DNA of 64,000 bases from an uncultured Verrucomicrobiae bacterium (lineage in GTDB: Bacteria; Verrucomicrobiota; Verrucomicrobiia; Chthoniobacterales; UBA10450): positions 256,001 to 320,000 of the forward strand of contig CAVTMK010000001.1 in the NCBI GenBank assembly GCA_963735805.1. Direction: 5' to 3'. The position numbers and the translations under genes were made by a program. The notes beneath the pieces are model-generated. The model made no database searches, was not told the origin of the DNA, and saw only the letters and a list, made by a program, of their open reading frames with translations. Positions 15,613-20,253 of the stretch are shown piece after piece; the stretch's first letter is position 1; each line of letters begins with the position of its first letter.

Positions 15613-17898
15613 CTAATGCCGACGTCGATAGTTAATCGACCAGTTTTGCTGCTGAACGTTCGGAACCGGCGTGCCGGTTGCTGCGTCGTAGATGGAACGC
15701 GAGAAGAAAATCACTTGGTTCCCAGTGTTGTCCGGATCAAAGAATGGATCGCCCGGAGGCACGGGGATATCGAATTCCTCATCGCCTGAAGTAGTCAGAT
15801 CGAGATCGTGATCAATGAATTGGCCCCAGCCGTAAGTCCAATCCGAAAGATTGCGTGCGTCGGGCAGGCTTTGGTCGCCTTGATCGACAACGCTGTTACT
15901 AATGAAACGCGCACTGGGACGGGTCGCGCCCGCCGGCGACGACAATGAATCGCCATAGGCGGCCGAGACGAACCGCATGAGGTCCGAGCCCGCTGCGCCC
16001 CAGAACCGATGCGAGTTATTGTTTCCTACCCCGTCGATTGGCGCCGGATTGAATTGGGTGACATGGGCGCCGATCAACGCCGGAGGAAGAAATCCCGGCC
16101 GTGGCTGCAATCCTTGCAGCGTTGTGTCATCAAAGAAGAAAACGTTGTCCTGAATCTTCGTGAGGACGGTGTTGCGCCGAATGATGTCGGAAAGCCGCGT
16201 TTGCTGGAGCGCCTGCAGTTGTGTGCCGAAAAAAACTCGCTGATACCAGAAGCGGTCTCCGTCACGAACACGCTCGAATTGGTTCGCGATAATTCTCCGG
16301 AAGGTAGGACCGACGCTGCCGCCGGGAACATGATCTTCGGCAAGGCCGCCGATCCAAAGATCGATCGAATCGACATTTCCATAAAGCTGGAACAACTTCG
16401 CCTGAAGATCGGGATCGCTCGTAATCTGACTGAAATTCGTGACGCGCGGCAGCCCAAATGCGGCGCGCGTGCTGTTATAGTCCGCAAGCCCATGGTCGCG
16501 GCCGCGCTGAATATTCAGGGAGGCTAGATCAAAACCACCCGCGCCAGGAGGCCCAAACAAGAAATTACGCAGGTCGCCAACTATTTTTGTATCAACCGCC
16601 TGGGCATTGTCGGTTGCGAGATATTTGAGGATCGGGTCCGGACCGGTTTCCTTCAGCGGATCAGGATTAAAGAACGCGTCATCCAGATCAAGCTCTTCGC
16701 GGATGGGATTGCCTTCGTTGTCTAGAAACTCGACATCGTCATTGACGAGCGTATGGCCAATACGATAAGCCGCAGTCGAGAACTCAGTCGCGATTCCGGA
16801 ATTCACGTTATCCTTATACCCAGAATATGCCCGCAAGGCGTTCGGTCCGAGCAGCGCCGGAAGAAACTCGCGATAAGTAATCACCTGCAGTTCGCCGGCG
16901 ACGATTCGTCGCGTCATTTGGAAAATCTTTTCGTCGTTTAACGAATGATTGGCCGCGGCGATAGCGGCGGCTATTTGATTGTGTTCCCGCACAAACAGCG
17001 CCTGAATGGCGGTCAGTTCGACATTCTCGTTCGACCGCACATCTCCGCACAAAAACAATTCGTTATCGGGAACTCGATGCGCGTCGTTTGCGTTTGGCAG
17101 GCCGTTAACGTTGAGCGGAGGCAGATTGCCAGTACTCGTTTTCAGAGCTCCGCCTTGAAACGTGCGCAGGGCAGCAGTACGTCCCGCGTCGGAACCATAA
17201 ACAACCGAACCATCAAGATACGCCGTAATCTGACTGACTTGTTGCCGTGGATTCGACTCACTCGCCCGCAATTGAAAGCTATTGGTTCCCTGGTGCAGGT
17301 TCACTGGGACACTAAAGTTTCCTGCCAAATCCAGCGGCACTGGCGAACCGTTTATCGAAAAGGAAATCATCCATGGCGCACAAATGTCGTCCGTAACCGT
17401 GCCCCGCAAAACAATGCTTTGCGAAGTGACCGTGCTTCCGTTCGGTGGGTTCAGATTGGCGAACTCACCCGAAGTATTCTCCGTATTCGGGCTCCGGATT
17501 TCTTGAACACTCGAATTGATTCTCGGCCCGGCTGCCTGCCCGTTGCGATTGCGAATTTGCCGCTCCGCCACCCAGCCATCCAAGCCATCGTCAAACCGGA
17601 CCTTCCACCACCAAACATCAGCAGAGCGCACGGGACCTTCTGTGATTGCGCCTTGAAGCCCGACCGGTTCAGTCGTGATGAACTGGCCGGCGAATGGCGG
17701 CGCTAAAAATATTGCGCTTTGACTAATTGTCCGCACTTGTTCGCCGATGTAAAACGGCGAGGCGGCGGCAGCACCCTGGCTTCGTCCGTTGATCCCGCAA
17801 CAGATCAGAACTAACAGCAGGGAGGCATACCAGTGCCTGAACCGAATGAACGTGATGTTTTCAAAGAACCAAATGAGGTTGAGAGTATTGGTTTTCAT
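15613..17898 (-). CDS. Secreted heme peroxidase (peroxidase-cyclooxygenase superfamily), circularly permuted, with SH3b-like and Ig-like domains
   Basis: ITAYLDGSVVYGS, GDVRSNE, REHN, AYRIGH, NIQRGRDHGL, RDGDRFW; the normally N-terminal IDGVGNN...WGQFIDHD...FFSRS block lies at the C-terminus. Confidence 0.92.
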   Translation of the reverse strand: MKTNTLNLIWFFENITFIRFRHWYASLLLVLICCGINGRSQGAAAASPFYIGEQVRTISQSAIFLAPPFAGQFITTEPVGLQGAITEGPVRSADVWWWKVRFDDGLDGWVAERQIRNRNGQAAGPRINSSVQEIRSPNTENTSGEFANLNPPNGSTVTSQSIVLRGTVTDDICAPWMISFSINGSPVPLDLAGNFSVPVNLHQGTNSFQLRASESNPRQQVSQITAYLDGSVVYGSDAGRTAALRTFQGGALKTSTGNLPPLNVNGLPNANDAHRVPDNELFLCGDVRSNENVELTAIQALFVREHNQIAAAIAAANHSLNDEKIFQMTRRIVAGELQVITYREFLPALLGPNALRAYSGYKDNVNSGIATEFSTAAYRIGHTLVNDDVEFLDNEGNPIREELDLDDAFFNPDPLKETGPDPILKYLATDNAQAVDTKIVGDLRNFLFGPPGAGGFDLASLNIQRGRDHGLADYNSTRAAFGLPRVTNFSQITSDPDLQAKLFQLYGNVDSIDLWIGGLAEDHVPGGSVGPTFRRIIANQFERVRDGDRFWYQRVFFGTQLQALQQTRLSDIIRRNTVLTKIQDNVFFFDDTTLQGLQPRPGFLPPALIGAHVTQFNPAPIDGVGNNNSHRFWGAAGSDLMRFVSAAYGDSLSSPAGATRPSARFISNSVVDQGDQSLPDARNLSDWTYGWGQFIDHDLDLTTSGDEEFDIPVPPGDPFFDPDNTGNQVIFFSRSIYDAATGTPVPNVQQQNWSINYRRRH

Positions 17899-17944
17899 TA
17901 TTATCGCTACGTATCAGCCATCCCTGCGCGACCCAAAGAACTTT

Positions 17945-17977
17945 GGGATAAAGCCGTCGGATTTTGTGATGAAGCGG
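17945..17977 (-). promoter_or_regulatory. LytTR-type direct repeat pair facing the peroxidase gene
   Basis: Minus strand CCGCTTCATCAC (17977-17966) and CGGCTTTATCCC (17956-17945), 21-bp period. Confidence 0.65.
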
Positions 17978-18063: not shown

Positions 18064-18096
18064 CCACTTCGTCACGCTAACGAGCCGCTTCGTCAC
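18064..18096 (+). promoter_or_regulatory. LytTR-type direct repeat pair facing the kinase gene
   Basis: CCACTTCGTCAC (18064-18075) and CCGCTTCGTCAC (18085-18096), 21-bp period. Confidence 0.7.
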
Positions 18097-18193: not shown

Positions 18194-19288
18194 GTGATAA
18201 AATTCTTTCGACCCATTCGGCCCTTGGTTTGCGGCTGGTTTCTCTCTTTCGCCGGCTGGGGTTTGGTCGCGTTTGTTCTCGGAGTAAACTTTGTCGGCAG
18301 CACAGATATTCCATGGACTCGCGCGCTTCACGCGGCGATTCGCGATCAATTGCCATGGGCAGTGCTGACTCCGTTGATCTTCCGATTCGCCACGCGCCAC
18401 CTGATCGATCATGCGAACTGGAAAAGGAATCTAGTACTGCAATTGATGACCGGCATCGTGGTGATCTGGGGAATCCACCAATGGAAACTTCTCATCGACC
18501 CGAATGGACCAGGCCCACACCATCGGCGGCCCATCTCTGCAAGAGATTTCGGCGGATCCGCAGGTCCGCAATTGGCAGCGCCACCGCCAGCCTGGGATTT
18601 TTTCCACTTCGCGAGTGTCGAAATTCCAATTTACCTCATGATCATTAGCGCCGCCCACACCTTGCATTTTTATCGGCGCGCCGAAATGCGATCCGGCCAG
18701 CTCGCCCGCGCGCGATTACACGCGCTGCAAACGCAGATTCATCCGCATTTTCTTTTTAATACGTTAAACACCATCGCGGGACTCATTCACAAGGCTCCGG
18801 ACAAAGCCGAGGTCGTCGTGCAGATGCTTGGCGATTTATTGCACTTCCTGCTAAGGGCGAATCCCGAGTCGGAGGTTCCATTGGAACGGGAAATTGAGTT
18901 CGTCGAAAAATATCTCGCCATCATGCACGTCCGCTTTGATAATCGCGTCCGGTACGAGTTCCAGATCGCGCCCGAGACTCTGGCCGCATCCGTTCCTGCC
19001 TTGCTTCTCCAGCCGATTGTCGAGAACGCAATCAAGCACGGTCTCGAACCCAAGCCGCGGGGTGGCAAGATCACCATCCAAGCGCAGCGCGACATGAGTT
19101 TTCTTCACCTTCGAGTCTCGGACACCGGTGTGGGCATCCGCAATTTGGAGAACGTCGAAGAGGGCATCGGTCTGACCAGCACGCGCGCGCGATTGCAGGA
19201 ATTGTATGGCGATGCCGCTTCGCTGGAGATTTTCAGTGACGGCGGGACCACTGTGTTAATCGAGATTCCATTTCGCCTGACCGCATGA
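18194..19288 (+). CDS. LytS/YehU-family membrane sensor histidine kinase
   Basis: QIHPHFLFNTLN H-box, LLQPIVENAIKHG, DTGVG, GIGL. Confidence 0.93.
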   Translation: MIKFFRPIRPLVCGWFLSFAGWGLVAFVLGVNFVGSTDIPWTRALHAAIRDQLPWAVLTPLIFRFATRHLIDHANWKRNLVLQLMTGIVVIWGIHQWKLLIDPNGPGPHHRRPISARDFGGSAGPQLAAPPPAWDFFHFASVEIPIYLMIISAAHTLHFYRRAEMRSGQLARARLHALQTQIHPHFLFNTLNTIAGLIHKAPDKAEVVVQMLGDLLHFLLRANPESEVPLEREIEFVEKYLAIMHVRFDNRVRYEFQIAPETLAASVPALLLQPIVENAIKHGLEPKPRGGKITIQAQRDMSFLHLRVSDTGVGIRNLENVEEGIGLTSTRARLQELYGDAASLEIFSDGGTTVLIEIPFRLTA

Positions 19289-19482: not shown

Positions 19483-20253
19483 ATGGCAACTCTGGAAAAT
19501 AGGACAAGCCTGGGAGAGCGACTGATCCAGCAGGCGCTGCGCGTCCTGATTGTCGATGACGAACGAATCGCGCGACAGCGCCTACGGTGGCTGCTGGAGA
19601 AAGAACAAAACGTTGAAGTCGCAGGCGAATGCAGCGACGGCGGGTCGGTCCTGAGCGCCGTGCAAGAACATCGGCCCGATCTCGTGCTGCTCGACATTAA
19701 GATGCCGGACATGAATGGCTTCGACGTCATTCATGCGCTCGAACCATGCGACCGACCAGCAATTGTCTTTGTCACTGCTTTCGACAAGCACGCCGTTCAC
19801 GCTTTTGAAACATGTGCGCTCGACTATCTGCTCAAGCCGGTCGCCGCCCCGCGCTTGGAAAAGACCCTTATGCGGGTCCGGGACTATTTGCGCTCAACCG
19901 GATCGACGCCGTCACCACTTACACTTAGCGCAAACCGTCGCTTCAGCGTTCGCTGTGGATACCGCACCACATTTATCACGCCTGAGCAGATCGACTGGAT
20001 CGAGGCCAGTGGCAATTACGCAATTCTTCACGTGAACGCGCAAAACCACTTGCTTCGCGAAACAATGGCCCGTCTCGAATCCCTGCTACCGTCCGGCGGC
20101 TTCATGCGCGTTAGCCGCTCCGCCATCGTCCGTCTCAGTCGCGTTAAAGAAATTCAAACTACGCCCACAGGCCATCACTTCGCCGTATTGCGTAGCGGCA
20201 TGCACGTGTGCGTGACCAAGAGCATTCGCGAAGTCGCCGCCCGCCTGCACTGA
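19483..20253 (+). CDS. LytTR-family response regulator
   Basis: REC domain (IVDDE, LLDIKMP, DYLLKP) plus LytTR domain (IDWIEASGNY, FMRVSRSAIV). Confidence 0.94.
   Translation: MATLENRTSLGERLIQQALRVLIVDDERIARQRLRWLLEKEQNVEVAGECSDGGSVLSAVQEHRPDLVLLDIKMPDMNGFDVIHALEPCDRPAIVFVTAFDKHAVHAFETCALDYLLKPVAAPRLEKTLMRVRDYLRSTGSTPSPLTLSANRRFSVRCGYRTTFITPEQIDWIEASGNYAILHVNAQNHLLRETMARLESLLPSGGFMRVSRSAIVRLSRVKEIQTTPTGHHFAVLRSGMHVCVTKSIREVAARLH

Follow-up and report, generated by a model that had tools for sequence, protein, structure and literature searches.

The nearest characterised relatives (best matches) of the protein described here are CyanoPOX from Cyanobacterium sp. TDX16 (PDB 8S6C) and DdPoxA (PDB 6ERC). 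According to the available part of its description (PMC11776367), CyanoPOX is a single-domain enzyme of normal order with a PEP-CTERM tail and without permutation, immunoglobulin-like (Ig) or SH3 domain. DdPoxA and the family 6 peroxidockerins, of which our trees held no reference members, are also secreted and have fold and motifs in common with the present enzyme (E 1e-97); in the accessible portions of PMC5787809 and PMC4420034 their extra domains are fused end to end, unlike the nesting found here. In a 64,000-nucleotide stretch from an uncultured Verrucomicrobiae bacterium (contig CAVTMK010000001.1, positions 256,001 to 320,000; hereafter the window), the open reading frame 15613-17898 on the minus strand encodes a probably exported, circularly permuted haem peroxidase of 761 amino acids (aa) that is set within an Ig domain and preceded by an SH3b-like domain. 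The gene is present as a single copy in a 3.5-Mb genome, its nearest relatives are labelled Candidatus Udaeobacter (89%), and the sequencing runs containing this DNA are soil metagenomes.

The swaposin insert of plants is a permuted small module inside a larger host. Permutation and insertion together are also known from the insertion domains of RNA polymerase (PMC13114784) and from PDZ domains (PMC13552848), the latter, in the accessible text of that report, a small module in a larger host, whereas here a 530-residue enzyme sits within a host of ~85 residues, an unusual inversion of domain insertion; in a further difference from other permuted inserts, the peroxidase family was inserted twice, with different cuts. 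Targeted literature searches yielded no description of either peroxidase permutation, and 'permut' occurs 0 times in the available text of the superfamily review (PMC4420034). As far as these searches show, the permuted Ig-nested peroxidase is an unpublished variant of a known enzyme family, and for the myeloperoxidase/lactoperoxidase superfamily it would represent a naturally occurring circular permutation, none having been found in print.

A circularly permuted haem peroxidase

In a Pfam scan, the An_peroxidase profile matched the protein in two separate stretches, Big_7/Glucodextran_B matched aa 150-225 and SH3_3 gave a weak match; the domain order from N to C terminus is signal peptide, SH3b-like barrel, strands A-F of a Glucodextran_B-type Ig domain, permuted haem peroxidase and terminal beta-strand (Table 1). 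Alignment to CyanoPOX placed aa 217-597 on its residues 132-515 and aa 620-743 on residues 5-129. The cut falls in the loop equal to CyanoPOX 129/132, between the motifs Y-D-x-x-T-G and N-P-R-Q-Q, which are joined directly in normal-order enzymes, and a 22-residue linker connects the old peroxidase termini. The permuted order was found in 120 of 121 proteins (the query and its best 120 matches), and the same junctions recur in >120 proteins of 55-90% identity from several sources. The first-pass annotation had called the enzyme a permuted peroxidase, which the two-stretch alignment and this conservation bear out; judged from the sequences, the permutation is exact against CyanoPOX and genuine, not an artefact. 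Of 446 genome loci, the best 80 comprised 26 with the permuted order, 52 with the normal order and 2 that were unclassifiable; 24 of the permuted loci carry a truncated Ig domain, 12 of these together with SH3, and the split-Ig loci are mostly labelled Verrucomicrobiota. The distribution is patchy: one of 60 relatives searched possesses the permuted gene (none of 36 within the same genus) and seven carry normal-order enzymes.

The profile PF03098 of the peroxidase-cyclooxygenase superfamily scored 507 bits against a cut-off of 25, in two stretches, and its fold, the distal Q-x-x-D-H-D and R-x-x-E motifs, the proximal His with its Asn, and the distal calcium site were all recognised. The canonical chain order, distal His ahead of proximal His, is reversed, which marks a variant and not a loss of homology. 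When checked against the CyanoPOX residue list given in the accessible text of PMC11776367, Q693, D696, distal H697, R288, E291, R379, proximal H382, N462, R465 and the calcium ligands D229/S231 were present in 123 of 123 split-Ig members, and calcium ligand D698 and T/S225 in 122 of 123 each. Profile, fold and catalytic residues place the protein in the superfamily, from which it departs in chain order and nesting. Because haem and calcium ligands are conserved in the split-Ig members, the permuted enzyme is likely to be catalytically active, and by analogy with CyanoPOX and DdPoxA it would oxidise iodide, thiocyanate or phenolics with H2O2.

Two observations were made close to the junctions. 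The new linker (window 16042-16122) resembles a proline-rich segment found ahead of the first motif in some enzymes of normal order from the same genus (N-terminal regions of L087, L088 and L089), a likeness that may reflect homology or chance. In L069:3794-5912, a normal-order peroxidase is broken into two frames near the same junction loop, probably by a frameshift or sequencing error.

The predicted closing strand of the Ig domain

The Glucodextran_B profile (PF09136) matched aa 143-216 with 27.5 bits against a cut-off of 27, and 24 of 24 members matched it at E up to 1. The match stops at profile position 67 of 83, and no contiguous last hairpin is present. In the AlphaFold model, aa 747-757 form a confident strand placed in the sandwich and not a disordered or distant tail, and in a fold search 10 of 50 matches were intact beta-sandwiches covering 144 to 757-761, compared with none in the absence of the tail. 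Strand 204-214 is thus predicted to pair with 747-757, and from this pairing the Ig domain would project as a rigid arm off an old surface loop, beside the calcium loop. The earlier proposals that the peroxidase is inserted in the Ig domain, which we place between the last two strands, and that the C-terminal tail supplies the missing strand both hold, the second as a prediction. Strands and the G-x-N motif are shared with the bacterial Glucodextran_B and Big_7 Ig repeats (PF09136, PF17957; PDB 1ULV domain B), on which the model superposes with its last strand included; the difference is that a 530-residue enzyme stands here in place of a five-residue D-x-x-G-N turn.

Table 1 Positions in the window of the peroxidase gene, its encoded parts and a nearby repeat
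Feature	Position	Strand	Remarks
Whole gene	15613..17898	-	761 aa
Sec signal peptide (predicted), aa 1 to ~44	17767..17898	-	Hydrophobic window aa ~25-36; cleavage site judged by eye
SH3b-like beta-barrel, aa 46-120	17539..17763	-	Fold matches and weak profile match
Low-confidence linker, aa 121-145	17464..17538	-	Predicted local distance difference test (pLDDT) <50 at 134-143
Ig-like domain (Glucodextran_B/Big_7-type), every strand except the last, aa 146-214	17257..17463	-	Profile match
First peroxidase part (C-terminal in the ancestral order), aa 215-597	16108..17256	-	Calcium loop T225/Y227/D229/S231, R288, E291, proximal H382, N462
New linker, old C-terminus to old N-terminus, aa 598-619	16042..16107	-	CyanoPOX alignment
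Second peroxidase part (N-terminal in the ancestral order), aa 620-743	15670..16041	-	Q693, D696, distal H697, calcium ligand D698
C-terminal tail, aa 744-761	15613..15669	-	Strand 747-757 (15628-15660), predicted last Ig strand
Perfect 9-bp direct repeat, 21-bp period, putative regulator site	18067..18096	+	Divergent promoter region, peroxidase versus LytS/LytTR pair

Export and cellular location

Both N-terminal elements named in the first-pass annotation, a hydrophobic export signal and an SH3b-like domain, were recovered, the former as a predicted Sec signal peptide and the latter by its fold. A signal peptide is present in 110 of 123 family members, and neither a Tat motif nor a lipobox was seen in the signal region of the 761-aa protein. 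The SH3b profile (PF08239) gave 16.5 bits, below its cut-off of 27; SH3_3 matched at E <1e-5 in 21 of 37 repeat-bearing relatives, and aa 46-120 adopt an SH3-like barrel in the model. Compared with known SH3b and GW cell-wall-binding domains (PF08239; PDB 4KRT, 5JQC, 7PJ3), identity is 8-14% and the domain is often lost. The SH3b-like domain likely tethers the enzyme in the cell wall or periplasm; targeting to cell surfaces, as proposed in the first-pass annotation, is a tentative reading, SH3 being missing from 12 of the 24 split-Ig loci.

A different destination deserves consideration. Endolysin and autolysin wall-binding domains are the best SH3 fold matches, and DdPoxA, as stated in the available part of PMC5787809, limits contamination by bacteria and is able to oxidise both iodide and thiocyanate; the protein could be a secreted antibacterial enzyme whose SH3b domain docks on the walls of other bacteria and which makes hypoiodite or hypothiocyanite there. 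We consider this unlikely, as no outer-membrane sorting or export signal was recognised in the protein, SH3 is missing from half of the 24 split-Ig loci, and neither a peroxide source nor an immunity gene is conserved near the peroxidase loci. Under the preferred reading of an envelope-tethered enzyme, export would run through Sec, the last Ig hairpin would staple the new enzyme ends together, the SH3b-like domain would tether the enzyme in wall or periplasm, and peroxide would be removed at the envelope.

Deep-branching permutants of the SH3-Ig type (P0100, P0134 and P0384), which we presume to be Patescibacteria proteins from their appearance, have an N-terminal helix resembling a membrane anchor, and P0100 and P0134 carry a second SH3 domain beyond the closing strand.

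Role of the Ig clamp and origin of the permutation

It had been suggested that clamping of the new termini by the Ig hairpin makes the permutation viable. When the Ig-less permutant L027, which is encoded by a complete gene on a contig of 779 kb, was used as query, 16 permutants were returned that are cut at the same site and have no split Ig, and the distal, proximal and QRGRD motifs are kept in all 16. One of them is a fragment, P0132/L023 combines a whole upstream Ig domain with an unrelated tail, and the chain of P0139 stops exactly at the cut. That the clamp is essential for folding of the permuted enzyme appears improbable in view of these proteins, even though the split Ig is retained in 125 of 149 proteins examined, the cut lies ~10 residues from the calcium loop and the calcium ligands are now drawn from both chain ends. 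L023:379-2535 is itself an Omnitrophota permutant, in which the upstream Ig domain is complete and of the same type and the tail is not strand-like.

In a 56-row tree built from the peroxidase parts alone, the 34 permuted rows formed one clade (99/94) nested among normal-order enzymes. The split-Ig rows fell into two groups, one of them lying among bare forms; a single split-Ig clade was not rejected by the approximately unbiased (AU) test (p-AU 0.076). The SH3-Ig permutant P0384 branched deepest, and in a quick tree it lay outside even two normal-order sisters (long branch, support 90). The simplest interpretation of these trees would be that the nested form is old, perhaps founding, and that Ig was lost more than once. 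If the Ig-nested form was founding and later lost, the clamp may have mattered at the origin and not afterwards; in its original wording the earlier suggestion is not supported.

Natural tandem double and triple peroxidases occur (P0112, P0137, P0151, P0153 and P0156), and in P0112 and P0151 the repeats are joined by 8-10 residues; such short-join repeats are the raw material of the duplication/deletion model of permutation, as outlined in the available text of PMC3281007. The tail is in register with the normal peroxidase junction (offset 0 in 108 of 123 members, the mean score still being negative) and also with the last Ig strand; therefore the peroxidase loop and the Ig turn resemble each other, and this resemblance may have guided recombination. 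A tandem duplicate would have given a C-then-N peroxidase unit, which would have entered an SH3-Ig gene by recombination at the D-x-x-G-N turn; Ig and SH3 would afterwards have been lost in some lineages, and the staple would therefore be helpful and not required. Taken as a whole, we regard as probable a Sec-exported permuted lactoperoxidase-type enzyme whose new ends are stapled by the Ig hairpin, which carries an SH3b-like tether and which originated through a tandem duplicate.

A second, independent permutation

Another permutation, with its cut directly after the distal-His helix, is present in 30 of the best 120 homologues that exceed 1332 aa in length. These second-type permutants (P0165-P0217, 30 proteins, e.g., P0172 aa 644-1181) are parts of giant surface proteins that carry Ig, RHS or dockerin annotations and are assigned in their annotation to planctomycetes and cyanobacteria; many of the permutants are without the ester-forming Asp, the distal His being retained. 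Twelve second-type rows formed a clade of their own (100/99) and their union with the first type was rejected (p-AU 0.006), which argues, on the trees, that the second permutation arose independently of the first. In most cases the insert separates the two halves of a domain whose weak CarboxypepD_reg-like Pfam match covers the first half only, suggesting as host a loop, perhaps a hairpin, of a different beta-sandwich-type domain. Four loci were found with the downstream host half, and the enzyme is absent from two of them, the empty-site alleles L119:2111-2680 and L120; L119 has eight residues at the site where P0172 has 538. The proteins P0168, P0169, P0181 and P0193 nest within the second-type clade and share its cut, but they seem to be inserted elsewhere in the host, where the first strand of a similar domain precedes them.

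A layout shared by >100 relatives, together with a second similar event, suggests that the enzyme can move as a cassette into loops of cell-surface proteins. We lean, by a little, towards the view that these peroxidases are portable permuted cassettes, repeatedly recombined into beta-sandwich turns of cell-surface proteins, with three host positions occupied through two independent permutations that differ in their cuts; the hairpin of the host would staple the ends, and inert stalk domains would thereby become envelope-displayed oxidant-producing enzymes. Because nested, bare, whole-Ig and normal-order forms as well as empty-site hosts exist naturally, the role of the staple in folding and stability is directly testable. 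Engineering of this peroxidase type, of which the bacterial member is well expressed in E. coli, could draw on the two tolerated cut sites, and the system offers a handle on the role of these enzymes in abundant soil Verrucomicrobiota.

Remaining alternatives

The long RTX-type peroxidases, presumably of the MopA kind, are just 30-36% identical to the permuted enzyme, which among characterised proteins stands closest to CyanoPOX and DdPoxA. That it is an animal-type haem peroxidase oxidising manganese is for these reasons improbable, although the accessible part of PMC13439051 attributes the Mn oxidation of Pseudomonas putida GB-1, Aurantimonas and Erythrobacter to such peroxidases.

The Ig domain might instead be complete without the tail, the first peroxidase segment (aa 217-225) forming the last strand and the tail being a loose remnant. 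The Pfam Glucodextran_B match indeed reaches aa 225, and within the 761-aa protein this segment outscores the tail as last strand. However, aa 217-231 are invariant peroxidase sequence bearing calcium ligands, across the family the tails, and not the peroxidase start segment, match the last strand seen in intact relatives of the Ig domain, and a strand-like tail accompanies the split Ig and is not seen in permutants without it; with the tail also modelled in the sandwich, this alternative is very improbable, and the tail is preferred as the closing strand. An assembly artefact or dead rearranged gene, which an uncultured assembly and the rarity of the gene among relatives might suggest, was ruled out by the conserved junctions and invariant catalytic residues, no second gene copy being present in the genome.

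Promoter region and neighbourhood

Between the peroxidase and a divergent LytS/LytTR pair (18194-19288, 19483-20253) there are two direct repeats with a 21-bp period. The repeat at 17941-17970, near the peroxidase start, is imperfect and present in L001 too. The other is perfect (1 match versus 0 in 100 shuffles, for a pattern picked after being seen) and degenerate in L001; we take it to resemble an AlgR/LytTR box, and the peroxidase may be under the control of the LytS/LytTR pair. Six of 28 loci (L003, L004, L005, L007, L021 and L083) have, upstream of the peroxidase, a divergent three-gene cluster headed by a gene resembling those for extracytoplasmic function (ECF) sigma factors.
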